This document shows positions 22,436 through 57,534 of a stretch of 64,000 nucleotides of DNA, piece by piece. The first letter of the stretch is position 1; each line of letters opens with the position of its first letter. Location: the NCBI GenBank assembly GCA_025060245.1, contig JANXCP010000001.1, forward strand, positions 244-64,243. Direction: 5' to 3'. Under the pieces are notes generated by a model. It was not told where the DNA came from. It made no database searches and saw only the letters and a list, made by a program, of their open reading frames with translations. A program made the position numbers and the translations under genes. This stretch comes from Thermoanaerobaculum sp. Lineage in GTDB: Bacteria > Acidobacteriota > Thermoanaerobaculia > Thermoanaerobaculales > Thermoanaerobaculaceae.

Positions 22436-22454
22436 GCGAAAGGGTCCGCGATGG

Positions 22455-22468
22455 TGACAAAATTGTTA
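22455..22468. promoter_or_regulatory. Imperfect palindrome, candidate enhancer (UAS) for a sigma54 activator
   Basis: TGACAA-AA-TTGTTA (one mismatch from a perfect dyad), located about 120-130 bp upstream of the -24/-12 element. Confidence 0.3.
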
Positions 22469-22586
22469 TGATCGGGAGACGGTGATGGCGCCTGAGGGCA
22501 TTACCTTGGAGAGGTTCGCGACCGCTCGAAGAACGGAACGTGCGTGATCGTTGGCTGCTTCGCCCATGGCCGCTCATTGAAGAAGC

Positions 22587-22601
22587 TGGCATAGCTCTTG
22601 C
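22587..22601 (+). promoter_or_regulatory. Candidate sigma54 (-24/-12) promoter of the pilus-like operon
   Basis: TGGCAT-AGCTC-TTGCT matches TGGCAC-N5-TTGCW with exact GG/GC spacing. It lies about 105 nt upstream of the ATG at 22707, in a lower-GC intergenic region. Confidence 0.55.
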
Positions 22602-22706: not shown

Positions 22707-23312
22707 ATGAAGAAAACGTTACTTCTGGGGTTGGTAGTGATGACGTTGGCGGCCCCTCTGGCACTGGCCCAGGCCACTGGGAGCACCAGCGTTTACGTGG
22801 ATTTCCCGCGGATTGCGATCCTTTACTACCGAAACTCCATTACTCTGCAGCCTTCGGCCACCGACCTCATCACCGCCTTTGCTGGTGCCAACCCGGTCAA
22901 CACTGGCAGCCAAACGATCAGCAGCTTCACCGCTGCCCTTGGCTCTCTGGAGGGAAACGCCGCCACGCCGGCCACACCCTTTAGCACCAATGTGCTCACG
23001 ACCATCAACAACTTTTACCAGGTGCGTTCCAATTACCGGTTCCAAGTGACGGTGAGCATTACCGACCCCACGTTGCAGGGCGATGGCACCACGGGTTCGG
23101 GCAACATCACCATGAGCGGTGTGGCCACCGAGTTGAACGACAACGGCACCTGGGCGGCCACGGTGCAACAGCCCAACCCCAACGGCTTGGGCACCATTCA
23201 TAAAGGTGATGTCCGGTTTAACCTGGACTTTTCCGGTGCCTCGTTGATCCCGCCGGCCACCACGGCGACCTTCGGGGACGGCGTGATCCAGACAACGGTA
23301 GCGTTCTACTAA
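22707..23312 (+). CDS. Secreted, Cys-free, Thr/Ser/Gly/Asn-rich beta protein; candidate major fimbrial subunit of unrecognised family
   Basis: The RBS AAAGGAGGAAG lies 4 nt before the ATG. Signal peptide MKKTLLLGLVVMTLAAPLALAQA. An alternating-hydrophobic stretch follows directly (STSVYVDFPRIAILYY). The C-terminus is ...VIQTTVAFY. It is the first gene in a subunit-subunit-chaperone-usher arrangement. Confidence 0.55.
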   Translation: MKKTLLLGLVVMTLAAPLALAQATGSTSVYVDFPRIAILYYRNSITLQPSATDLITAFAGANPVNTGSQTISSFTAALGSLEGNAATPATPFSTNVLTTINNFYQVRSNYRFQVTVSITDPTLQGDGTTGSGNITMSGVATELNDNGTWAATVQQPNPNGLGTIHKGDVRFNLDFSGASLIPPATTATFGDGVIQTTVAFY

Positions 23313-23329
23313 TAGCTTGACCCACGGAG

Positions 23330-23833
23330 ATGAAGGGGAAGGGGGGCTTTGGCCCCCCTTTTGCCCAGACGTACACTAGTGTGGTGACGGTGCCTTTACT
23401 CTTGACCCTGGCAGCGGCGGCTTCGGTGGGGATCATGACCCCTGGCCAGGTGGTCCTGGAGCCGGTTACTGCCCAAGAGCTTGCCAGCGGCGCGCTGCTT
23501 CCCCTGGAGGGTGGGGCAACCCCGCTGGTGCTGGTGGTGGAACGCACCGTGCGCGGGGCGTTCCGGCTGGAGGTCCCCCAGGGATTTCCCATCTCTTCCC
23601 TGGAACTGAAAGTCCAGTTCGCGGGCAGCGGCTGGGGCCATGGTGGTGTGCTGCGACCCCAGGACAGGGGCTCCCCGATTCCGGTTCGGGTCACCCTTCT
23701 TCCCCTGCGACTTGTGGAGGTGCGGGCTGACCGGGAGGTATGGGAGGGGGATCTGTTGCTGCAACTGGATCTGAGCCGGGCGCTGGCAGGAACGTTTACC
23801 GGAGAACTCCAGTTGATGGTGGCGGGGAGGTGA
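23330..23833 (+). CDS. Hypothetical secreted beta-rich protein; candidate second (minor or tip) subunit
   Basis: It has a hydrophobic signal-like segment VVTVPLLLTLAAAASVG. The start is uncertain: the ATG at 23330 has GGAG directly abutting it, and an in-frame GTG at 23381 lies after the hairpin. Its stop lies 1 nt before the chaperone-like gene. Confidence 0.4.
   Translation: MKGKGGFGPPFAQTYTSVVTVPLLLTLAAAASVGIMTPGQVVLEPVTAQELASGALLPLEGGATPLVLVVERTVRGAFRLEVPQGFPISSLELKVQFAGSGWGHGGVLRPQDRGSPIPVRVTLLPLRLVEVRADREVWEGDLLLQLDLSRALAGTFTGELQLMVAGR
23339..23362 (+). terminator. Hairpin plus T-run just after the first subunit gene (possible partial terminator or attenuator)
   Basis: GGGGGGC-tttg-GCCCCCC followed by TTTT. 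It lies inside the annotated 5' end of the next ORF. Confidence 0.4.
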
Positions 23834-23834
23834 G

Positions 23835-24650
23835 GTGCGAGCCCGGCAGCTGTGGTGGTTCCCGCTGTGCACGCATCTTGCCTTTGCCGGTGGCATCGCC
23901 GTCTCCCCGCCGCGCTTTGATATTCTCCTGACCGGACCCACCGCTGCCGAATCCTTGAGGGTGGTGAACCTCGGGGAGACACCGCTCCATCTCAAGGTGT
24001 CGGTGGCGCATTTTGGCTTGGACGAGGAAAACCGTTTGGTGAGCCTGCCGCCCACCGAGCAGTCGGCGGATCAGTGGATGGTGATCACACCTCTAGAGTT
24101 CGTGGTGGAGCCGCAGAAAAGCCAAACCGTGCGCTTCGCCATCAGGCCCCGGGTGAAGCCGCAGCCGGGGGAGCATCGGGCCATGATCTTCTTGGAGGAG
24201 CAACCCCCGGAGGAAAAGAACTTGGTGATGCGCAACCTGGCGCGCATTGGCATCGGCGTCTACGTGAACGTGCCGCCGGTGGAACGGCGGGCGCAGGTTC
24301 ACTGTGTGGATGTGGTGTGGGACGGGTCGCAAGCCCTGGGGATGTTGGATGTGGAGAGCCTGGGAAATGCCCACGTGCGTCCCGCCATGACCTACATCCT
24401 CTGGCCGCTCCACGCCTTTCCCGGACAACCGGGTACCCCCCTGACCCGGGGCCCTGAGGGCAGCCTGTTGACGCCACCAGGGGCTTTGCGGGCGGGGGAC
24501 GTGCCCGATATCCCGGTGCTCCCGGGAACGCGACGCCTGATCCGTTTTCCCTTGGGCGCTCTTGAGGCAGGGGAGTACTGGGTGGAGCTGGCAGGAAGGG
24601 TGGCCAACGAGGAGCTAGCGGTGGCGTTGCCTTTAAGGGTGGTGCGGTAA
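23835..24650 (+). CDS. PapD-like periplasmic fimbrial chaperone (two Ig-like domains)
   Basis: Signal peptide, then IAVSPPRFDILLTGPTAAESLRVVNLGETPLHLKVSV, ...ITPLEFVVEPQKSQTVRF..., HRAMIFLEE and ARIGIGVYVNVPP. This matches the PapD_N pattern (v.P.r..l....l.v.N.g..p..v ... P..f.l.P...Q.vR ... ipv.v.p). The size (271 aa) and position fit. The RBS is GGAGGTG. Confidence 0.6.
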   Translation: MRARQLWWFPLCTHLAFAGGIAVSPPRFDILLTGPTAAESLRVVNLGETPLHLKVSVAHFGLDEENRLVSLPPTEQSADQWMVITPLEFVVEPQKSQTVRFAIRPRVKPQPGEHRAMIFLEEQPPEEKNLVMRNLARIGIGVYVNVPPVERRAQVHCVDVVWDGSQALGMLDVESLGNAHVRPAMTYILWPLHAFPGQPGTPLTRGPEGSLLTPPGALRAGDVPDIPVLPGTRRLIRFPLGALEAGEYWVELAGRVANEELAVALPLRVVR

Positions 24651-24659
24651 CCCTGGGGC

Positions 24660-27146
24660 ATGTTTTGGCGCCTCCTTGTTTTGTGGGTGTTCCCCGCCGC
24701 TGCCGCGGCGGCCGGTTTTTCTTGGGGTCAGGTGTTTCCACCGCGCAGCTCCCTGGTGGTGGGGGTCTTTGTAGAGGGGCGGGAGGTGGGGGTCGTGGAG
24801 GCTCTTGCAACCGAGGCGGGGGTGTGCTTGTCCTTGCCGGATTTTGCCCGGTTGACGGGCACTCACTGGGACGGCCGGGTGGGCAAGCTCCAGACTCCCC
24901 TGGGAGAAGCGTTTTTCAAACCGGCGGAGTTGCTGCGGGTGGATGACGGGTTCTACCTCTGTCCCGAGCCGGCTCGGTCTCTGCTTGGCGTGGAGATGGA
25001 GTTCAACCCCGTGGAGGTCACGGTGACCCTGGACCTCCCCTGGGCGGTGGCTCAGCCGGTGAGCTGGGTGCGCCCCAGCTTGGTGCCCGAGGTGCGGCCA
25101 CCCGCCTGGGGCGTGGGAACCCTCCGCGGGGACCTTTGGGTGGCCCGGGAAGGGGACACCAACCAGTGGATGGGCAGTGCCCTGGTCACCGGTCGTGCCT
25201 TGGCTGGGCAGTGGCGGCTCGTAGTGGATCAAACCACGGAGGAAAACCCCACGGTGCGCGAGCTGTTGTGGGTTCGTTCGCAGGAGCGCACGGTCTTCTT
25301 GGTGGGACGCAGTTTTCTCCAACCGTCGCCGTTGCTTTCCGGCTTGGATCTGGTCGGCGTGCAGTGGGTGTGGAGCAACGAGCCCTTACCCAAACTGGGC
25401 GGGGGCTGGGGCGTGGCCCTGCCCTTTGCCACAGCGTTGCGCAGTTTTCGCGGACCAGCTCCAGTGGGAAGTCTGGTGCGCCTGAAGCTGGATGGGTTTG
25501 TGGTTGCTTCCCAGACGGTGGGGGTTTCAGGACGGTATGAGTTCGTGGATGTCCCCGTGGCGGCGCGCGGTGTGGCCGTGGTGGAGGTGGAGGTCTACGA
25601 CCGCCACAACCTCTTGGTGCCACGGGAGGTACGGAGGGAGGTGGTGGCCGCGGCTGCTCCCTTACTTTCCCCAGGGCGTCGGGTCCACGCCTTGGGCTTT
25701 GGGTTGGGGGGCAACTTGGGCAGGCAGCTTCTGGGAGAGCGGGAGGAGCGGGAACCGGTCGCCTCTTATAGTTTGCGCTGGGGCCTTTCCCAACAGCTCA
25801 CGCTGGAGTTTCTCGCGCAAGCCCGACGGGGCCGGGAGCAGGTGGCCATAGGGTTCGCTGCGGCACCCACCCCCTGGTGGTTGGCCTCCGGGGAGTTGGC
25901 CTACGGCAACGGGGCCACCGCCTACCTCCTGGAGAGCTTCTTTTTCCGTCGGGGGTACGAGGTTTCTGCACGTTTTCTCCGGCAGCAGCGAACGTTCCCC
26001 TTGGTGAAACCCCAGGCTTGGGACCGCCAGGATCATTCGGTGGAGCTGCGTCGCTTTCTTGGCCGATGGCTAGAGGTGGGGCTGTGGGCGCGGGAGCATT
26101 GGCTGAGCCAGGAGAGGGTGCGGTGGATACGGCCCACCTTGGGGGTCAGCTGGGGATCCTGGTTGTTTGCCCGTGCCGTCCCTGACCAGTCGGGGTTCAT
26201 GAGCTGTGTGGTTACCGCCAGCCCCCACCCCAGACTGCGACTGGCCGCCTCCCTTTCCCGCACCGACCTCTACGACCTGCAGTGGGAGCTGGGCGGCCGA
26301 AGGCGGTGGGTCTGGCGGACCACGTGGGAGACCGGGGGCCCCGGTTCGGATCGCCTCACCACCACCGTGGGCAATCGTCCCGCCTTCTGGGGGGATCTGA
26401 GCTGGCGGGTCGGTGTCAGCCGCAGTGGCCCCCAGGTAGGGCCTTACTTGGAGGCAAGCCTTCGCCTCCTAGGCGGCTTTTGGTTGCGCGCGGAGTATGC
26501 CGGTGTCCCCACTCGCGCCATGGCCGGGCAAGGGCAGAGGCCGCGGCTGTTCGTCGGGCTGACCGCCGACTACGCGTACTCCTCAGGCCTTCTCACCCCC
26601 ACCGGTTCCCTGCCCCTGCAACGGGAAACTGGGGCCATTGCCGGCCGATTATGGGTTGCCCACGGTCGGGCCAACCTGGCGGGGGCGCGGGTGGTGGTGT
26701 GGGGCGTGGGTGGGACCACTACCGACAGTGGCGGCCGCTTCTTTTTGGGTTCGGTTCCGCCAGGGGTCTACGAGGTGGAGCTGGACCCGGATAAGCTTCC
26801 TTTGGAGTTGGTTCCCAAGCGTTCCCGGGTGGTGGTGGAGGTCCAGGCGGGTGTGACCACCCGGGTGGACTTTCCCATGGAGGTGTTGGTGGGGGTGGCA
26901 GGGCGCGTGACCGACGCCGCGGGAAGACCGGTGGCAGGGGTGCGGGTGGTGTTAGAAGGCGAGCAGTCTATTCGGGTGAAAGAGACCTCTTCCGATGAGT
27001 TTGGCCTCTTCCGCTTTGACCAAGTACCCTTGGGCACTTACATCCTCCGCGCGGTAGGGCCCGAGGAAAGGAGCCTAACTTGGCGCCAGGTGGAGCTGCG
27101 CGAGTTCCTCTTTGACCAGGACCTGCAGCTTCCCCCTTTGTCCTAA
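24660..27146 (+). CDS. Usher-like outer-membrane assembly platform with two C-terminal CarboxypepD_reg-like domains
   Basis: 828 aa with a signal peptide. The N-terminal segment LVVGVFVEGREVGVVEAL..EAGVCLSLPDFARLTG resembles the usher N-domain. The plug-like segment is SLVRLKLDGFVVASQTVGVSGRYEFVDVP...VEVEVYDRHN. A long amphipathic beta region follows. The C-terminus has the repeats GRLWVAHGRANLAGARVVVWG...GRFFLGSVPPGVYEV and GRVTDAAGRPVAGVRVVLEG...GLFRFDQVPLGTYIL. Confidence 0.6.
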   Translation: MFWRLLVLWVFPAAAAAAGFSWGQVFPPRSSLVVGVFVEGREVGVVEALATEAGVCLSLPDFARLTGTHWDGRVGKLQTPLGEAFFKPAELLRVDDGFYLCPEPARSLLGVEMEFNPVEVTVTLDLPWAVAQPVSWVRPSLVPEVRPPAWGVGTLRGDLWVAREGDTNQWMGSALVTGRALAGQWRLVVDQTTEENPTVRELLWVRSQERTVFLVGRSFLQPSPLLSGLDLVGVQWVWSNEPLPKLGGGWGVALPFATALRSFRGPAPVGSLVRLKLDGFVVASQTVGVSGRYEFVDVPVAARGVAVVEVEVYDRHNLLVPREVRREVVAAAAPLLSPGRRVHALGFGLGGNLGRQLLGEREEREPVASYSLRWGLSQQLTLEFLAQARRGREQVAIGFAAAPTPWWLASGELAYGNGATAYLLESFFFRRGYEVSARFLRQQRTFPLVKPQAWDRQDHSVELRRFLGRWLEVGLWAREHWLSQERVRWIRPTLGVSWGSWLFARAVPDQSGFMSCVVTASPHPRLRLAASLSRTDLYDLQWELGGRRRWVWRTTWETGGPGSDRLTTTVGNRPAFWGDLSWRVGVSRSGPQVGPYLEASLRLLGGFWLRAEYAGVPTRAMAGQGQRPRLFVGLTADYAYSSGLLTPTGSLPLQRETGAIAGRLWVAHGRANLAGARVVVWGVGGTTTDSGGRFFLGSVPPGVYEVELDPDKLPLELVPKRSRVVVEVQAGVTTRVDFPMEVLVGVAGRVTDAAGRPVAGVRVVLEGEQSIRVKETSSDEFGLFRFDQVPLGTYILRAVGPEERSLTWRQVELREFLFDQDLQLPPLS

Positions 27147-27340: not shown

Positions 27341-27634
27341 ATGGTCCGGTGGATCGCCGCAGGGTTGCTTCTGGTGGCAGCGGTCCATGCCCATGCGGGG
27401 GATACGGGCGTGCGCGTGTCTCTCACCGGCCTGCCCACGCTTCCTGCCCACTCCGGACCGGTCCGGCTGGTGGATGTCATTCGCCACATGGCTGTGAGCA
27501 GCCAGGGCAAGGGTGCGGCGCTGCAGGTCCTCACCGTTCATCTGCCTGACCGCGCCGGTTCCAAAGGAAGCCCACAAAAACCCTTTACGGGGCCGGGAAC
27601 GCTGGTGGCCCCCAACACCGTGGCCAGCTTTTAG
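27341..27634 (+). CDS. Small secreted hypothetical protein (97 aa)
   Basis: GGGAGGTGGG lies a few nt before the ATG. The signal peptide MVRWIAAGLLLVAAVHAHA is plausible. There are no recognisable motifs. Its 3' end overlaps the convergent gene by 4 nt. Confidence 0.35.
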   Translation: MVRWIAAGLLLVAAVHAHAGDTGVRVSLTGLPTLPAHSGPVRLVDVIRHMAVSSQGKGAALQVLTVHLPDRAGSKGSPQKPFTGPGTLVAPNTVASF

Positions 27635-29286
27635 CGACGCCCGGGGATGGATACCCCTTCGGCACTGCCCCCTAGGTGGCGGAGCGTGCCGTCACCAGGG
27701 ATCAGGTCCCCCGGGCCTCCATCGCTGAGATCAAAGGTGTAGCCCCAAACAAATCGGTCACGGATTCGGGTGACAGCCAACGTTTGCCACGTGGAGAGGC
27801 GCAGGGCACGGTAGGTAACCGATGGCGTACCCACCTGGTGGAACAGCAGCTTGATCTGACCCTGGGGGCAGGGAAGGGAAAAGCCCACCAGCCCCAGGGG
27901 AAAATCGTAGAGGGGATCAGGGGTTCCGCTACCCGCTTCGGTCACGGTGAAGACCTGGGTAAGCTGCGGACAACCGGTTGCTTCCACGGTGATCCAGCCT
28001 TTCCCAATGGCCAGGGGCAGGGTAGCCACGTGCCTTTGGTTGCGATCGGGGATCCCATCACCGTTGCCATCGCCTTTGCGGAACACGGGGAACCCATCCC
28101 CCCCGGGGTAGCTATCTTCCACTGCCGCCGCCACGCCGTCCCCATCGTCGGCCGCCTGAAGCTCCAGCTGGGCGGTGTTGTTGGTAGGGTTAGGATCACT
28201 GGTGGAGGAGGCGGCGGTGACGGTCAACGTGCCCCCGGCAAAGCTGGGGCTGGCTTGCAGGGTGACACTGCAAGTGGCCGTGCCGTGAACCGTCAGGGAG
28301 CCCACGCTCCAGCCGCCGGCAAAGAGGGTGCAGGGATCGGCCACTGCGGCAAGCCCTGGTGGGAGAGCTCCGGAGACGGTTACGCCGGCGGCGGGGGAAG
28401 GCCCCTGGGCGCTGACCCACACCTCCACGGGGAAGGGATGGGCATCAATCGGGTCGGGGGGTGCAGCCCACAGGTCCAGGGTCAGATCCGACTGGGGACC
28501 CCCGGGGGGAAAGGTGGGGGCAAAGAGGCAGAGGGCCGTTCCGGTGTTCACCAGACCGACCCGTCGTGCGCTCCACGCCGCCCCGTGGTGGGCTCCTGGG
28601 CCTTGCCAGCCGATGGTGGCTGCTTGCTCGCTGCCCGGCGGCAGAGCGGCGTACTGGAAAACCACTTGCCCGCTCTGGTGGTAGAGGACCACCTGGAAGG
28701 TGAGGGGCAGCGAACCCCCAGAAAGCTGCAGGTTGGACCATTGCACCACGGTACAAGGTTCCGCCCCTAGCGCTTCGGAGCTCCGTGGACAGGAGGGGTA
28801 AGAGGCGGTCAGCACGCTGCCCCCGGATCGCACCAGGTCGGCGTGGAAGGGCAGAAGCCGCGCGCTTTCGGTAAACACTGGCGACGCAGAAGGGAAGAAG
28901 GCGGAAGCCACCGCGGGCAGGAGGGCATCAGGGGAAAAATCTCGCCCGTCCTCCTGGTTCAGGCCACTGGCAAAAGCCACGTAGCCGTTCACCGATACCA
29001 CCAGACTACTTAGCGCCAGGCCGTAAAAGGGAAAAGGCTGAGGGAGGGCAACCACAGCGCCGCCGTCGTCATCGGCCGGCGGATCGCCGGGGGCGGCATA
29101 GGGCGCGCTGAAGATGAGGGGTGTGCCGGCAGCGTCAATGTTGAGGAAGTTGTACGCGCAGTGGCTGGAGGCTTGGGAGTACATACGATAGCCATACCCG
29201 TCACTTAGCCCTTGTTGCACGCGGCTTTGACCCATCACCGCCGTGGGAACCGAAACCAGCAAACCGAGCAAGAGTAGCTTTCTCAT
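27631..29286 (-). CDS. Secreted multidomain protein (NIDO-like N-terminus, DUF11-like repeat, Asp-rich calcium-type repeats)
   Basis: Signal peptide MRKLLLLGLLVSVPTAVMGQ. FPFYGLALSSLVVSVNGYVAF is NIDO-like. ...TCSVTLQASPSFAGGTLTVTAASSTSDPNPTNNTA is a DUF11-type ending. DDGDGVAAAVED...GDGNGDGIPDRNQ resembles thrombospondin-type-3 repeats. Confidence 0.7.
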   Translation of the reverse strand: MRKLLLLGLLVSVPTAVMGQSRVQQGLSDGYGYRMYSQASSHCAYNFLNIDAAGTPLIFSAPYAAPGDPPADDDGGAVVALPQPFPFYGLALSSLVVSVNGYVAFASGLNQEDGRDFSPDALLPAVASAFFPSASPVFTESARLLPFHADLVRSGGSVLTASYPSCPRSSEALGAEPCTVVQWSNLQLSGGSLPLTFQVVLYHQSGQVVFQYAALPPGSEQAATIGWQGPGAHHGAAWSARRVGLVNTGTALCLFAPTFPPGGPQSDLTLDLWAAPPDPIDAHPFPVEVWVSAQGPSPAAGVTVSGALPPGLAAVADPCTLFAGGWSVGSLTVHGTATCSVTLQASPSFAGGTLTVTAASSTSDPNPTNNTAQLELQAADDGDGVAAAVEDSYPGGDGFPVFRKGDGNGDGIPDRNQRHVATLPLAIGKGWITVEATGCPQLTQVFTVTEAGSGTPDPLYDFPLGLVGFSLPCPQGQIKLLFHQVGTPSVTYRALRLSTWQTLAVTRIRDRFVWGYTFDLSDGGPGDLIPGDGTLRHLGGSAEGVSIPGRR

Positions 29287-29295
29287 GGCCCACCT

Positions 29296-31575
29296 CTATT
29301 GCACTGTCAGCGCCAGGCACCAGCGCTCCAGCGTTCCCGTCTGGCCGTTGGCCCGGTCCTCCACCCGCAGCTGCCAGGTTCCCGGGCTGGTTTGCCCATC
29401 AAAAGCGCTTAGAGCTTGGAAGGGATAGAAAAACCCGGACACGGCGGGCAAGTTACCGCACTGGACTTGCACGTTGCCCGTGGCCTCGTCATCCAGCATG
29501 GCATCCACGTTGTCCCCCTGGCACCCTCCTGAGCCGTTGGTGAGGCGGTTCATCAGCTGGCGTGTGGTTCCGGCAGGCGAGGTGAGGAAGGCGTTCAGAT
29601 CTCCCACCCGCGGGTGGGTGATGAGAAGCCACACATCCACGTCCGTGACCACACCCCACCCCGCAGGGGCGGAGACGGTACTGGTGACCCCTGTGGGGCT
29701 GTTGTCGGGGATGGCCGCATTGGGGGCGGCGCACAGGAGGTAGCGCGGCGGGCCGGTGGCGGGTCCGTAGCGAAAGATCTCGTAGTTGCCATCGGCGTTG
29801 GAGCCCAAAGGGTTTTGGTCTGACTGCCAGGCGGCGTAAAGAACTGCACCATTTCTGCTTACCGTGGGAGCCAAGGGCGTAGGAGCGGCGGCCATCCCCA
29901 CCCCGGGTTGATTGCTGGTGGCGGTGGCGAAGTACCGTGCCGTGAAGGTTCCGGACAGGAAGTCTAAGCGCTCGCCCACCGCCCAAGCCCCGTCATCGGT
30001 GAGGCGCGCCATGATGTAGGCCTCAGTGGCTGGGCCAGCGGAGAGTTGCCGTATGGTGCCGCTGGGCCAGAAGAAGAGCTCGTAGCCCCCGTCGCCGTTG
30101 CCTCCGGCGAAGTTGCCGTTGGAGATAAAGGCAATCGCGGCGCCGCTGGCGGAAATGGCCGGGGTGTCATTGAAAATGGCGCCGCTGGTGGTGGTAATGG
30201 CTTGGAAGGTGTTGGCGGTGCGATCCCAACGGTAAATTTCCGGATTCCCGTCGGGGTTCGTGCCGCCGATGTTACAGGTGGAAACAAAGGCCACGAATTG
30301 CCCCGTGCTCCGACTCACCGACGGAGCGTAGTTTTGGCAACTGGAGGTGGAGGTGCCGGCAAAGGTGGTGCCGTTCCACGCGACGATCTCGTCGTTGCCG
30401 TCAGGATTGGTAAAGGTGCCATGGCCACAGTTGGAGACAAACACCACCGGTGTGCCGGTGCCATCGCCTGCCACCACGGGGAAGCGGTTTTGACAGGGTG
30501 CGGTGGTGCTGGTCACCTGGACGGTGGTCAGGGTGGTACGGTCTACGCGAAAGATTTCCCAGTTGCCGTCAGTGTTGCCGCCGGTGAGGTTGGCGTTGGA
30601 GGCAAACACCACAAAACGACCGTTGCTGGTGACGGCGGGATGGGAGAAGCTGCCACCTGAGGCAGCGGTAAGCCTTTGCAGGGTGCCCCCTGACCAGAAG
30701 TAGACTTGCTCCACCGCGCCCGGGTTATCTCCTGTCAGGTTCCCCGAGGAGATGAACACGTAGGAAGGGGGGTTTTCCCCTGCTGCCACCTCGCGGGACT
30801 GGGTGGGGCGAGCTTCCAAACCGCCCCCCTTCAGCTCTACCGTCCACCCTGCTGAGACGGTCACCTGGGCGGTTTGCGGGGTGCACGCCGGAACCGCCAC
30901 CGCGTCCACCGCCAGGGCGGAGTCAAAGGTGGCATCACCCTGGTCGGCCACGCGGAAACGGAGCGTGTAGTTCCCAGGGGTGGCTAACGTGACGCAGGTG
31001 CTGTACCACTCGGTGCGGCCGTTGCCCGCACCCCCCCTGATTTGCGTGTTTTGGATAGGCCCGGGGGCGGTAAACAGGTACTGAGTGTTGTCGTACGGGC
31101 CGAAATCGGGCCAGGGGGAAGCACCGGTGACGTTTTTCAACACGCTGTGACGGAACAGGGGAGCTTCATTGATGGTGACGTCAAAAAGGTCATCGAAGGC
31201 CGCCCCTTGGTCCCCCTCGCTGGTGAGGAACATTACCGCCACCTGCAGCCCTGCAGGAGCCGTGGTGAGGGTAAAGGTTTGCTGCAGGGTGGCCAGGTCG
31301 TAGTCGTTGCTCCCGCCCTGCCCGTCCAGGCTCGTGGCGGAACCACCGGCATTGCCAGGGCCGGTGGAGAGGACGGCAAAGTAGGACCCGTCAAAGGGCG
31401 TGATGGAGGGGTTAACCCCTGTGGCGCTGATCACCTGGACCCGCCCAGTCCCCCCGGCGGTCCACCCGGTGAGCGTACCGGTCTCAAACGACCCGTTGGT
31501 GATTTGGGCGGAGGCGGTTCCCGCCGCCGCCAAGGCGACCAAGGTTGCCATGCGCATGGTTCCGCTCCCGTTCAC
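29296..31575 (-). CDS. Secreted protein: N-terminal jelly-roll-like domain, PD40/TolB-like beta-propeller repeats, C-terminal proprotein-convertase P-domain
   Basis: Signal peptide MRMATLVALAAAGTASAQ. ITNGSFETGTLTGWT follows. Repeated N.DGN.EI(F/Y)R(V/W) units are present (GNWEIFRV, GNDEIVAW, GNPEIYRW, GGYELFFW, GNYEIFRY). The C-terminus PDNSPTGVTSTV...VTDVDVWLLITHPRVGDLNAFLTSPAGT...GTWQLRVEDRANGQTGTLERWCLALT is P-domain-like. Alternative starts are at 31557 and 31551. Confidence 0.75.
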   Translation of the reverse strand: MNGSGTMRMATLVALAAAGTASAQITNGSFETGTLTGWTAGGTGRVQVISATGVNPSITPFDGSYFAVLSTGPGNAGGSATSLDGQGGSNDYDLATLQQTFTLTTAPAGLQVAVMFLTSEGDQGAAFDDLFDVTINEAPLFRHSVLKNVTGASPWPDFGPYDNTQYLFTAPGPIQNTQIRGGAGNGRTEWYSTCVTLATPGNYTLRFRVADQGDATFDSALAVDAVAVPACTPQTAQVTVSAGWTVELKGGGLEARPTQSREVAAGENPPSYVFISSGNLTGDNPGAVEQVYFWSGGTLQRLTAASGGSFSHPAVTSNGRFVVFASNANLTGGNTDGNWEIFRVDRTTLTTVQVTSTTAPCQNRFPVVAGDGTGTPVVFVSNCGHGTFTNPDGNDEIVAWNGTTFAGTSTSSCQNYAPSVSRSTGQFVAFVSTCNIGGTNPDGNPEIYRWDRTANTFQAITTTSGAIFNDTPAISASGAAIAFISNGNFAGGNGDGGYELFFWPSGTIRQLSAGPATEAYIMARLTDDGAWAVGERLDFLSGTFTARYFATATSNQPGVGMAAAPTPLAPTVSRNGAVLYAAWQSDQNPLGSNADGNYEIFRYGPATGPPRYLLCAAPNAAIPDNSPTGVTSTVSAPAGWGVVTDVDVWLLITHPRVGDLNAFLTSPAGTTRQLMNRLTNGSGGCQGDNVDAMLDDEATGNVQVQCGNLPAVSGFFYPFQALSAFDGQTSPGTWQLRVEDRANGQTGTLERWCLALTVQ

Positions 31576-36216: not shown

Positions 36217-37626
36217 ATGAGGGAGTGTGGATTGTGCCATTTTCCGGCACCCGGAGGAGGTCCTGTGCAGCGGTTGACCTTGCGTACACCAAGGGGCATG
36301 ATGAGGCGGATGCTCGGCAGGCTGGCCCGTCGCCCGCAAGAGGCGTTGCTACTGGCTGCGCTGGATGGGGTGCTCCTGGTGGGTGCGGTCCTTCTGGCCC
36401 ACTGGCTGCGCTTTAACCCCGCCGACCGAGCGGTGCACCTGGCACGGCTGGCGGAGCACCCCGGTCTGTCCCTGGTAGGTCTGGTGGGGCTCTGGGTGGT
36501 GGCCACCGCGGCCGAGCTGTACCAGAGCCCCCCGTTATTACCCGGGGAGCGGGCTTTGCGGGTGGCTTTTGCTGCCTTGGCCTGGGGTGTGGTGCTGGTC
36601 CTGGCCACCTACTTGGTGCCGGAGTGGAAGTTCGGACGTGGGCTTCTTCTGGCCACCACCGCGAGCTGGGGGCTGGGGGCGTTTGCCCTACGCTCTGCTT
36701 TGGACCACCACCGCCAGCAGCGGGAAAAACCCCCGGCGTGGCTGGTGGGGGAAGGGGAAGAGCTGGGCCCGCTGTTGCATTTGGGCCAAAACCCCGCCTG
36801 CCCCTGGCGCTTGTTACCGGTTTCCCCGCAAGCCCTGGAAAAGCCTGAGGGCACTGAAGAACCAGCGGTGGTGTTCGTGGTTGATCCGCGCCGGCTGCCA
36901 GGGTTGGTGGGGCTGCACTTTGCCGGCGTGCCAGTGGTGCCGGCGTGGGAGCTTTGGGCCTTGGTGGAGGGGCGGTTGCCCGTGGATTTGCTCGCTCCGG
37001 AAACGTTCCTGTACCAGCGGGAGTTTGTGGGGATCCACTGGGAGGTGTTTAACCGCACCACGCGGGTGGTGGACGTGGTGGTGGCGGCTTTGCTTTTGGT
37101 GCTCGCCTCGCCGCTACTGCTGCTGGCCGGCTTGGGCTCCTGGCTCCTGCAAGGCACGCCGGTGTTCTACCGCCAGGTCCGCTTGGGTCAGTTTGGTCGG
37201 CCCTTTGTCCTGTGGAAGCTGCGCACCATGCACCGCCGGGCAGAGCTCAACGGACCGGAATTCTGCCGCGAGGACGACCCGCGGGTCACGCCTCTTGGCA
37301 GGCTCCTGCGTCGCTTGCGGGTGGATGAGCTGCCCCAACTGTACAACGGGTTGGTGGGGGATATGTCGCTGGTGGGGCCGCGCCCTGAACGTCCGGAGTT
37401 CGTGCGCCAGCTGGCGGAGCAAATTCCCTATTACAGCTTTCGCCTCGCAGTGCCACCTGGTCTGACCGGTTGGGCGCAAGTGAACATGCCCTACGCCCGC
37501 ACGGTGGAGGAGCACCGGCGCAAGCTGGAATACGACCTCTATTTCATCCGGGAGCGCTCCCTATCCCTGTATCTGATGGTGTTGCTGCGCACCGTTAGCG
37601 CTGCCCTGTTCGGGGTTCGGCGATGA
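36217..37626 (+). CDS. Polyprenyl-phosphate glycosyl-1-phosphate transferase (bacterial sugar transferase, WbaP/EpsB-like priming enzyme)
   Basis: N-terminal TM helices. The C-terminal domain reads PVFYRQVRLGQFGRPFVLWKLRTM...DPRVTPLGRLLRRLRVDELPQLYNGLVGDMSLVGPRPERPEF. The start is uncertain, and an ATG at 36298 (MMRRML) is plausible. Confidence 0.88.
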   Translation: MRECGLCHFPAPGGGPVQRLTLRTPRGMMRRMLGRLARRPQEALLLAALDGVLLVGAVLLAHWLRFNPADRAVHLARLAEHPGLSLVGLVGLWVVATAAELYQSPPLLPGERALRVAFAALAWGVVLVLATYLVPEWKFGRGLLLATTASWGLGAFALRSALDHHRQQREKPPAWLVGEGEELGPLLHLGQNPACPWRLLPVSPQALEKPEGTEEPAVVFVVDPRRLPGLVGLHFAGVPVVPAWELWALVEGRLPVDLLAPETFLYQREFVGIHWEVFNRTTRVVDVVVAALLLVLASPLLLLAGLGSWLLQGTPVFYRQVRLGQFGRPFVLWKLRTMHRRAELNGPEFCREDDPRVTPLGRLLRRLRVDELPQLYNGLVGDMSLVGPRPERPEFVRQLAEQIPYYSFRLAVPPGLTGWAQVNMPYARTVEEHRRKLEYDLYFIRERSLSLYLMVLLRTVSAALFGVRR

Positions 37627-38537
37627 ACGCCCGGGTGGGCGTGGTGGTGGTGCACTTTGGCAGCCCCCAACCCACCCGCCGGTGTGTGGCCTCGGTCCTC
37701 GGCGACCCTTCGCCGGTGGAGCGGCTCTTGGTGGTGGTGGATAACAGCGGGAACCTACCCGAACTGGCCAACGCTGTGCTGCTCCGCTGTCCGGACAATC
37801 CCGGATTTGGTGAAGGTGCCAACCGTGGCATCCGGCTTCTGGCAGACCGAGGGGTACCAGCGGTGGTGGTCCTCAACCATGATGTGGAGATCATGCCCGG
37901 TTTTTTCTCTTCGGTGGTCAGGCACTTGCAAAGGGAGGGGGTGGGTGCGGTGGGTGGTCCCCTCTTTTTCCCTGACGGGAGAAGGCTGTGGGCTGCCGGT
38001 GGGGCAGTGCTTTGGCCGCTGGGCACGGTGCGGCAGTTCCGCTCCTTGCGCCGGGCTTGGCGGGCACGACCGGTGGGTTTCCTCCCCGGGGCGGCGTTGG
38101 GTTTGCGGTGGGATGCCTTTTGGCAGGTAGGGGGGTTTGACCCGCGTTTTTTCGTGTACCACGAGGACTTGGACCTGTGCCTGCGCTTGCGGCGAGCGGG
38201 CTGGCAGCTTTGGTACGCTCCCGGGGCGGCAGCGATCCATCACCTGGGAAGTGCCACCGGTTCCTACGCGTACTCGCCTTTGTACTTAGAGCACTTGGCC
38301 CGGACTCGGCTGCGCCCGTTTCGTCCGTTGGCCCTGCGCCTTTGGTTGGCGTCGGTGCACTCCCTGTACGTGGCTGGACGGTGGGCTTTTCTCCGTCTGC
38401 ACGGCGAGGAGGAGAAGGCCGCGGCTCTCTGGCGCGGGCATCGGGCGGCTTTGGCCACTGTGGGAGAGGGTCCCCTAGCGGTGGTGCATCGCCGCCGCTC
38501 CCAGCACCTCTTGGAAGGCGCTGCCCACCCTGGGTAA
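37623..38537 (+). CDS. Family 2 glycosyltransferase
   Basis: VGVVVVHFG...VVVDNSGN...NPGFGEGANRG...VVVLNHDV and a DxD-like YHEDLDLCLR motif. It has an ATGA overlap with the upstream sugar transferase. Confidence 0.8.
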   Translation: MNARVGVVVVHFGSPQPTRRCVASVLGDPSPVERLLVVVDNSGNLPELANAVLLRCPDNPGFGEGANRGIRLLADRGVPAVVVLNHDVEIMPGFFSSVVRHLQREGVGAVGGPLFFPDGRRLWAAGGAVLWPLGTVRQFRSLRRAWRARPVGFLPGAALGLRWDAFWQVGGFDPRFFVYHEDLDLCLRLRRAGWQLWYAPGAAAIHHLGSATGSYAYSPLYLEHLARTRLRPFRPLALRLWLASVHSLYVAGRWAFLRLHGEEEKAAALWRGHRAALATVGEGPLAVVHRRRSQHLLEGAAHPG

Positions 38538-56997: not shown

Positions 56998-57534
56998 TCA
57001 GACCGCCTGCGGTTGGGGCAGGTAGCGGGCGATGGCGGCAAAGGCAGCAAAGATGATCGCCGTGTAGGCCAGATCACCGAGCAAGCTCAAGCCGTAAAAG
57101 GGCAAAGCCGCCGCGTAACAAGCTACAAGCCCAGCGAACGTATGGGGGTACAGGGTGCCCCCTGCCCACACGGCAAAATTGGTTACCAGGTAGAACAGCG
57201 TGGACGCGGCCACGGAGGCCAGCGCCACCCGCCCGGCCTGTAACCCACGGGCGGCCAAGGAGCCGAGCACCACCACCAGCCCCAAGGCACCGTACACCGC
57301 CAGCATGTGTTGGTGGAATCCGGCACCGGTGAAAAGCTCCAGGAGGCCATCAGAGAGCAGCATGGAGGCCAGAGGGAGGAGCAAAGCGCGGGCCCGCAGG
57401 CCAAAGATTGCCCCCGAAAAAAGCGCCAATGCTGTCGCCGGTGCCACGTTCGGCGGGTGGGGAACCAGGCGCAACAGCGCTGCCAAAACGATCAAACCAG
57501 CCGCCACTGTCCACCGATTGAAAAACCGGCCCAT
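56998..57534 (-). CDS. Polytopic membrane protein of unknown function (DUF6580-like by memory)
   Basis: About 5-6 hydrophobic helices. The N-terminal motif is LRLVPHPPNVAPATALALFSG. GGGGAGGTG lies before the ATG at 57534. Confidence 0.5.
   Translation of the reverse strand: MGRFFNRWTVAAGLIVLAALLRLVPHPPNVAPATALALFSGAIFGLRARALLLPLASMLLSDGLLELFTGAGFHQHMLAVYGALGLVVVLGSLAARGLQAGRVALASVAASTLFYLVTNFAVWAGGTLYPHTFAGLVACYAAALPFYGLSLLGDLAYTAIIFAAFAAIARYLPQPQAV

Follow-up and report, generated by a model that had tools for sequence, protein, structure and literature searches.

Can a surface fibre be built by the chaperone-usher route when its subunits belong to no recognisable pilin family? The question is raised by a four-gene locus in a 64,000-nucleotide (nt) stretch of DNA, here called the window, from a metagenome-assembled genome (MAG) of Thermoanaerobaculum sp. 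(Acidobacteriota); proteins identical to those of its first and third genes, g1 and g3, are present in the NCBI entry for such a MAG. A first-pass annotation of the sequence had proposed a divergent chaperone-usher-like operon in the classical gene order, and the analysis given below leads to the same reading: with a probability of about 0.75, the operon encodes a divergent system of the chaperone-usher kind by which a surface polymer is assembled. Only its chaperone is recognisable by sequence, and the case is carried by the chaperone, by the predicted fold of the outer-membrane protein, by the relatedness of the two subunits and by the recurrence of the whole cassette in other phyla.

The locus consists of four co-directional open reading frames (ORFs) on the plus strand (22707-23312, 23330-23833, 23835-24650 and 24660-27146), whose gaps of 17, 1 and 9 nt had been given correctly for the longest readings. 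They are real genes of one operon, and all four proteins bear Sec signal peptides. The genes are as follows.

22707-23312, plus strand: g1, putative major fibre subunit, 201 amino acids (aa) from an ATG, with a Sec signal peptide and no cysteine
23381-23833, plus strand: g2, putative minor subunit of 150 aa (start codon GTG 23381), bearing a signal peptide and, C-terminally, the motif EGDLLLQLDLSRALAGTFTGELQLMVAGR
23835-24650, plus strand: g3, periplasmic PapD-like chaperone, 271 aa, matched by Pfam PapD_N
24660-27146, plus strand: g4, predicted outer-membrane usher, 828 aa, assigned through an AlphaFold model, Foldseek and hhalign

The second gene had been read as 167 aa, and this has been corrected. 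The longer reading crosses a conserved hairpin, and the orthologues in four related loci are called at lengths of 123-144 aa (three of the four at 143-144 aa); because of the alignment with these loci the start is placed at GTG 23381, which leaves between g1 and g2 a spacer of 68 nt containing the hairpin.

The chaperone and the outer-membrane protein

On the evidence of its N-terminal domain sequence, g3 is a PapD-type chaperone. The PapD_N-like motifs noticed in the first pass correspond to a Pfam match of 25.7 bits against a cut-off of 23, and PapD_N was matched independently by 28 of 37 sampled relatives (best E value 2.5e-8); the Pfam scan of g3 gave no PapD_C match. The identical protein at NCBI is named 'fimbria/pilus periplasmic chaperone', the g1 protein there being 'hypothetical'. 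The g3 family numbers 120 word-sharing relatives, including those of Nostoc, Anabaena, Scytonema, Hyphomicrobiaceae and Acidobacteriota, at 32-45% identity. When the family profile (A9) was compared with a profile of six Escherichia coli chaperones, hhalign gave 83% (E 8e-6) over the N-domain. In this comparison Arg27 of g3, which 90% or more of the family keep, falls opposite an Arg invariant among the E. coli chaperones, Arg8 of FimC, and the G1 strand is aligned as well.

For g4, a model was built with AlphaFold2 from an alignment of 14 orthologues, in which the following domains are predicted in addition to the barrel.

24747-25034, plus strand: N-terminal periplasmic domain of g4 (aa 30-125), alpha/beta, predicted local distance difference test (pLDDT) score 66-87
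25434-25649, plus strand: plug-like beta-sandwich of g4 (aa 259-330), six strands, inserted after barrel strand 6
26631-27104, plus strand: C-terminal domains 1 and 2 of g4 (aa 658-735 and 738-815), two beta-sandwiches with CarboxypepD_reg signatures

The modelled barrel begins with six strands (aa 154-239), is interrupted by the plug insert and continues through another 18-20 strands (aa 341-635), so that the plug separates strands 6 and 7 of a barrel with about 24 strands in all, which is accompanied by an N-terminal domain and two C-terminal sandwiches, the second of them modelled at pLDDT 84-89. These domain positions are close to those of PapC. In a Foldseek comparison of the g4 model with the PDB, ranks 1 to 17 are all FimD or PapC (E 1.2e-27 to 9e-12); full-length FimD is matched at E 1e-27, full-length alignments covering about 880 columns, and the translocation domains of PapC and FimD are matched at a template modelling (TM) score of 0.52-0.56 and E of about 1e-12. 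The sequence profile points in the same direction: a g4-family profile made from 20 diverse relatives (A3) aligned with that of five E. coli ushers (A10) at hhalign 82% and E 1e-5, through 361 colinear columns that correspond to the N-terminal domain, the first six barrel strands and the plug, whereas against FimD alone it reached 1%. The N-terminal domain of g4 was aligned with the usher N-terminal domain in this profile-profile comparison, and the plug motif FRGPAP..LV.L.LDG..VASQ.VG.SGRYEF.DVP of g4 with G.A...A.VTI.QNG..IY...V.PG.F.I.DL of the E. coli ushers.

By its model, then, g4 has the fold of an usher, in agreement with the usher-type barrel and plug that the first-pass reading requires of the 828-aa protein. 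The usher likeness it had seen in the N-terminal and plug-like segments stands, being borne out by Foldseek, domain order and profile match. It had also taken the CarboxypepD_reg-like sandwiches to stand instead of a part of the usher, and this does not stand: they are placed at the sites of the usher C-terminal domains CTD1 and CTD2, and therefore replace no usher domain. CarboxypepD_reg is the sole Pfam match of g4 and falls on these two C-terminal stretches (E 1e-19).

Subunits, cassette and DUF4402 operons

A check of the sequence confirmed g1 to be a cysteine-free protein of 201 aa, rich in Thr, Ser, Gly and Asn (38% of the whole and 41% of the mature protein) and ending in TTVAFY. Its signal peptide is closely followed by a conserved strand of alternating hydrophobicity, TSVYVDF, and this by PRIAILYY. 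Its 29 homologues, at 65-100% identity, all belong to Thermoanaerobaculaceae. Neither g1 nor g2 has a sequence match in Pfam, NCBIfam or the PDB, where the only relevant matches for the four proteins are PapD_N and the CarboxypepD_reg-type sandwiches.

Wider families were obtained through synteny. The g1-like family (A5, 32 sequences) extends over four or more phyla, and the g2-like family (A6, 44 sequences) adjoins the chaperone gene in 44 loci. The profiles of the two align with each other at hhalign 97.4% and E 9e-12 over 138 columns and have in common a C-terminal strand motif, G.h.h.hDhs...aG.Y.G.l.v.v; judged by these profiles, the families are homologous and g1 and g2 are paralogues. 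The common domain begins at residue 34 of g1. N-terminal to it, and in the g1 family only, lies the alternating-hydrophobic strand (h-p-V-p-h-p-V), which reads TSVYVDF in the window and V.V.V.VP in cyanobacteria; its nature and place are consistent with a donor strand but no proof of one.

The outer-membrane protein is widespread. With the usher profile A1, 900 proteins at E below 1e-30 were found among 1.84 billion cluster representatives (several hundred clusters at 50% identity); about 100 of the best 150 matches are full-length (800-1000 aa), the rest being giant repeat proteins that match the sandwich domains only. A degenerate DNA pattern, based on C-terminal domain 1, found 90 genomic stretches, a sample that is biased to Nostocales and is no census; most are from Nostocales, and others come from Thermoanaerobaculia, other Acidobacteriota, Chlorobium/Chlorobiales, a Nitrospinota MAG and further hosts. 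With a Nostoc locus and the window added, the usher hidden Markov model (HMM) was matched in all 92 loci, and the chaperone was also present in 52 of them within the 8 kb stored per locus. From these 52, the chaperone-adjacent subunit could be extracted in 44 and a second subunit in 34. The recurrent order is a protein of about 190-200 aa, one of about 170-200 aa, the chaperone and the usher, and the hosts of this cassette are Nostocales cyanobacteria, Chlorobium, other Acidobacteriota and Hyphomicrobiaceae. The classical order of subunit, subunit, chaperone and usher claimed for the window is thus a conserved one. The clade is broad and apparently undescribed.

Several members depart from the window in detail. 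Cyanobacterial ushers of the g4 family are much longer than g4, at about 1000-1460 aa (L001:9176-12157 and many Nostocales loci, e.g. L009, L026, L071), and at least that of Nostoc UHCC 0702 is extended at its N-terminus by a long stretch of low complexity, about 160 residues, ahead of the conserved N-terminal domain. In a Hyphomicrobiaceae MAG and another genome (L105:3547-9077, L106:3406-9096), two subunit-sized genes lie upstream of the chaperone gene, and the usher gene is separated from it by a third small gene (184-203 aa). A looser relative, on a Deinococcus psychrotolerans plasmid (L093:4916-10659), has genes of 291, 281, 175 and 1058 aa, all annotated hypothetical; the 281-aa protein is chaperone-like and 27% identical to g3, and the 1058-aa protein is outer-membrane-sized and has SdrD_B/CarboxypepD_reg domains.

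Operons for DUF4402 proteins are kin of the clade. They came to light by a tblastn search of plasmids with g3, which gave Polaromonas pE5SP1, and a follow-up search, which gave Polaromonas JS666 plasmid 2 and Novosphingobium ES2-1 p2; the operons are at L094:4223-9485, L103:5887-11225 and L104:5878-10601. In each, genes for DUF4402 proteins (Pfam E values from 1e-21 to 5e-27) come first, then that of a PapD-like chaperone and last that of a larger protein, about 890-920 aa long, which bears no annotation beyond 'carboxypeptidase-like regulatory domain-containing' or 'hypothetical'. This last protein aligns with the g4 family over its full length (hhalign 99.6%, E 1e-23, 742 columns), best conserved in C-terminal domains 1 and 2. 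Since the outer-membrane protein of these operons is homologous to g4, DUF4402 proteins are probably subunits of a cryptic chaperone-usher-like system. Like the operon in the window, DUF4402 operons have one to three small secreted, Cys-free subunits, whose C-terminal motif is common to g1 and g2. They differ in their proteobacterial hosts and plasmid-borne loci and in that their subunits match Pfam DUF4402 strongly, which g1 and g2 do not: two members each of the g1-like and g2-like families give faint DUF4402 matches, and the profile likeness is confined to the last 22-25 residues (probability 67% for the g1 and 25% for the g2 family). In the literature searched there was no mention of DUF4402, nor any pairing of 'usher' with the CarboxypepD_reg domain outside the type IX secretion system.

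Known systems and alternative readings

The E. coli Fim (FimA/FimC/FimD) and Pap (PapA/PapD/PapC) systems offer a close comparison. They have in common with the operon the succession of major subunit, hairpin, minor subunit, chaperone and usher, a chaperone with a PapD_N-type N-domain and the Arg8 equivalent, and, as modelled for g4, a five-part usher with its plug after strand 6 and two C-terminal sandwiches. Unlike them, g4 gives no sequence match to PF00577, PapC_N or PapC_C and bears CarboxypepD_reg signatures on its C-terminal domains, g1 and g2 have neither Fimbrial-family similarity nor a conserved disulfide, the Lys112 position is not kept in the g3 family and the promoter of the Thermoanaerobaculum operon is of the sigma-54 type; the E. 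coli systems belong to Enterobacteria, the present one to Acidobacteriota, Cyanobacteria and Chlorobium.

Some of the findings weigh against a chaperone-usher system. First, the g4 model is middling (pLDDT 66, the plug region below 50), the three usher families just named were unmatched in g4 at E up to 1, PF00577 was unmatched by 10 diverse g4 relatives at E up to 0.1, and profile HMMs of the g4 family do not retrieve FimD or PapC from PDB sequences; HMM searches of the PDB with the g1 to g4 families likewise gave no ushers, chaperones or pilins. Second, the position of FimC Lys112, which with Arg8 forms the basic pair of the cleft that anchors the C-terminus of the subunit, aligns with Glu in the g3 family; other invariant arginines, R100, R104 and R115, might replace its role. 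Third, no pilin-family sequence model matches the subunits, PF00419 and PF05229 being unmatched by the 32 g1-like and 44 g2-like proteins at E up to 1, and the profiles of both families gave no hhalign match to 14 E. coli pilins. The first pass had been unable to assign the subunits to Fim/Pap-type or spore-coat-U pilins, and apart from the short C-terminal likeness to DUF4402 this holds. The pilin disulfide, represented in the aligned E. coli pilins by one invariant and one near-invariant Cys, is missing, since both g1 and g2 are free of cysteine. For g1 the model is poor (pLDDT 58), with only aa 95-200 moderately confident and all-beta; EcpA, PapE and FimG are among its leading Foldseek matches at probability 0.95-0.98, but these reach E values of only 6e-3 to 5e-2. 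Finally, no experiment on any member of the clade was found in the literature searched, and the 64-kb window holds no gene for a sigma-54 activator with the GAFTGA motif.

Pili of the chaperone-usher pathway are split into classical, alternative and archaic classes, the last being known from proteobacteria, cyanobacteria and Deinococcota (PMC10104325). The archaic, or sigma, pili (Acinetobacter Csu, Pseudomonas CupE and Synechocystis CccS/CccP/Slr0019) resemble the present system in their broad phylogenetic spread, in their small operons and in subunits that end in a strand of the G-Y-x-G-x-h-x-h type. They differ in that their definition rests on spore-coat-U subunits (PF05229) and PF00577-matching ushers (PMC4390875), neither model being matched by the Thermoanaerobaculum operon, and in that the C41-C85 disulfide of CupE1 is conserved (PMC10104325), whereas g1 and g2 have no cysteine.

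It is conceivable, if somewhat unlikely, that the operon is a remote branch of this archaic class, with g1 and g2 as extremely diverged pilins of the spore-coat-U/DUF4402 type. In that case the subunits would fall within a recognisable superfamily, and the system would be one more member of it. Such a descent would suit the full-length homology of the usher family to the outer-membrane proteins of the DUF4402 operons, which also agree in gene order and include a PapD-like chaperone, and the alignment of the g1/g2 C-terminal motif with the DUF4402 C-terminus together with the faint matches in each family. The likeness to DUF4402 is, however, too short to be significant, no member matches spore-coat-U, and the DUF4402-operon ushers themselves match neither PF00577 nor, by hhalign, the E. 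coli usher profile. For the Synechocystis proteins CccS, CccP and Slr0019, the cyanobacterial system on record so far, the defining parts are subunits of the spore-coat-U type and an usher matched by PF00577 (PMC4390875; bioRxiv 10.1101/130278), and by this description they were set apart as probably a different, archaic system (see also PMC6755745). The CT (cyanobacterial tubular) pilus of Microcystis (PMC12397347) was also considered and rejected as unrelated: its pilin is another one, with a helix-turn-helix C-terminus, and its cluster contains glycosyltransferases and no chaperone.

A second alternative, which we hold to be improbable, keeps the machinery and changes its product: g1 would form no discrete pilus but an amorphous or capsule-like coat, as do Yersinia F1 antigen and the Myxococcus spore-coat-U system, or a short surface oligomer. 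The operon has two single-domain subunits only and no two-domain adhesin. The Thr/Ser/Gly/Asn-rich g1 is better conserved (65-83% identity) than the usher (44-63%), as would fit an abundant component of a surface layer, and the neighbouring genes encode secreted surface proteins with DUF11/CLIPPER and proprotein-convertase P-domains. Fibre and coat cannot be told apart at the level of sequence. The known coats of the chaperone-usher route, such as Caf1, are still linear donor-strand polymers, so that the coat would differ from a fibre in morphology and not in mechanism.

That g4 is instead a transporter or porin of the outer membrane outside fibre assembly, for instance a TonB-dependent-like one with periplasmic or lipoprotein partners, is highly improbable: CarboxypepD_reg domains do occur in SusC-type TonB-dependent receptors, and TonB-dependent transporters are present in the Foldseek list of g4, but the latter reach only E of about 1e-4 to 1e-5 and TM 0.20-0.25 against the 1e-27 and full-length alignments of ushers, the domains are C-terminal and not N-terminal in g4, which has no Pfam match to a TonB receptor or plug, and the usher gene is always coupled to a PapD-like chaperone.

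Returning to a divergent chaperone-usher system as the preferred reading of the operon, a wider proposal can be attached to it, to which we give an even chance. The cassettes would form a previously unrecognised, phylum-spanning chaperone-usher class in Acidobacteriota, Nostocales, Chlorobium, Nitrospinota and Alphaproteobacteria, with the proteobacterial DUF4402 operons as its sister group; its ushers would elude every usher model by keeping the fold only, and would carry CarboxypepD_reg-like C-terminal domains, and its Cys-free subunits would be two new pilin families.

Promoter, setting and proposed mechanism

Three further elements lie upstream of g1 or between g1 and g2.

22453-22502, plus strand: two imperfect palindromes, TGACAAAATTGTTA and ATGGCGCCTGAGGGCAT (the second also written ATGGCGCC...GGGCAT)
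22587-22601, plus strand: sigma-54-type -24/-12 element, TGGCATAGCTCTTGC, an exact match to the consensus (TGGCAT-N5-TTGC)
23335-23366, plus strand: GC-rich hairpin after the g1 stop, GGGGGGC-UUUG-GCCCCCC, then UUUU

The sigma-54-type element sits 105 nt upstream of the g1 ATG. By itself such a match is not significant, as 1.2 are expected per window; the sole other exact match to TGGCA-N6-TTGC in the window is at 57471-57485 on the minus strand (TGGCAGCGCTGTTGC). Conservation upholds the element noticed in the first pass: the TGGCA and TTGC columns are invariant in five of five Thermoanaerobaculum upstream regions whose overall identity is 56%, and GG at -24 and GC at -12 are kept at fixed spacing among the orthologous loci. 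No sigma-70-like promoter was found in the upstream region, and from the conserved element we infer that transcription depends on sigma-54. The palindromes precede the -24 box by about 85-135 nt; in the alignment of the five loci they are kept in part, as TGAC-N7-9-GTCA, and they are candidate sites for a sigma-54 activator. Cyanobacteria are not known to have sigma-54; if they lack it, sigma-54 control would be specific to the Thermoanaerobaculum lineage.

The hairpin has a folding energy of -25.6 kcal/mol, and its stem and T-run are invariant, with a variable loop, in five of five related loci. It is missed by a simple terminator scan because the T-run has only four T, and its support is this conservation. 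It is probably a partial terminator or attenuator between the gene for the major subunit and the rest of the operon. In the pap and fim operons, a major subunit and a hairpin are followed by packed genes for minor subunit, chaperone and usher, an arrangement that serves as a stoichiometry device.

The cassette has the same chromosomal context in four other Thermoanaerobaculum loci, being preceded by ADH, OmpH, AhpC, TPR, thymidine phosphorylase and ABC-F genes and followed by that of a DUF11/CLIPPER protein. The earlier claim that the GC content is like that of the flanks fails for g1 (59%, against 65-66% in g2 to g4 and the flanking genes); the accompanying claim of no recent import stands, since the synteny across the genus marks a resident locus despite the lower GC of g1. 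The end of g4 is followed, after about 195 nt, by a 97-aa ORF with a signal peptide (27341-27634, plus strand), which has counterparts of about 95-104 aa at the same position in the four related loci; the sequences barely align (E 0.033), and because this conservation is unconvincing the ORF is kept outside the system. On the opposite strand, two large secreted proteins adjoin the operon (27631-31575, minus strand), one of 551 aa with a DUF11/CLIPPER repeat, whose synteny is kept across the genus, and the other of 759 aa, in which PD40 repeats are joined by a proprotein-convertase P-domain at the C-terminus. With the DUF11 neighbour conserved in the genus synteny, the region looks like a cell-surface gene cluster. 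Some 9 kb downstream, at 36217-38537 on the plus strand, are genes for a Bac_transf sugar transferase (469 aa) and a family-2 glycosyltransferase (304 aa). Glycosylation of the Thr/Ser-rich g1 by these two enzymes is conceivable, and no link connects them to the operon.

If the operon is a chaperone-usher system, its working may be pictured as follows, where we infer donor-strand complementation and exchange, the formation and morphology of a fibre and the role of g2. Transcription would start at the sigma-54 promoter, and the hairpin after g1 would pass only part of the transcripts; by this partial read-through g1 would be made in excess over g2, g3 and g4, the latter packed 1 and 9 nt apart. 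In the periplasm, g3 would bind unfolded g1 and g2 and hold both in an assembly-ready state. The N-terminal domain of g4 would take up the chaperone-subunit complexes and, with the plug displaced, the growing polymer would be threaded through the barrel of about 24 strands, its last subunit being held by the two C-terminal sandwich domains. Polymerisation of g1 would proceed by donor-strand exchange through its N-terminal alternating-hydrophobic strand, and g2, the only minor subunit, would serve as tip, initiator or adaptor.

Censuses of chaperone-usher systems are reportedly built on usher sequence models, as in the Nuccio-Baumler clades and the secretion-system finders based on them, and a clade of the g4 type is invisible to such models. 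Its members come from environmental phyla in which surface fibres are almost unstudied. Recognition of the clade would give a function to many proteins now named 'carboxypeptidase regulatory-like domain' or 'hypothetical', bring in two further pilin families and probably account for DUF4402; it would also provide thermostable, disulfide-free fibre subunits from a thermophile and widen the evolutionary range of donor-strand-based assembly. Should the phylum-spanning class prove true, chaperone-usher secretion would be markedly older and wider in diderm bacteria than PF00577-based censuses show. For Thermoanaerobaculum, a hot-spring acidobacterium, as well as for heterocystous cyanobacteria and green sulfur bacteria, the operon offers a concrete candidate for an adhesion or biofilm structure.

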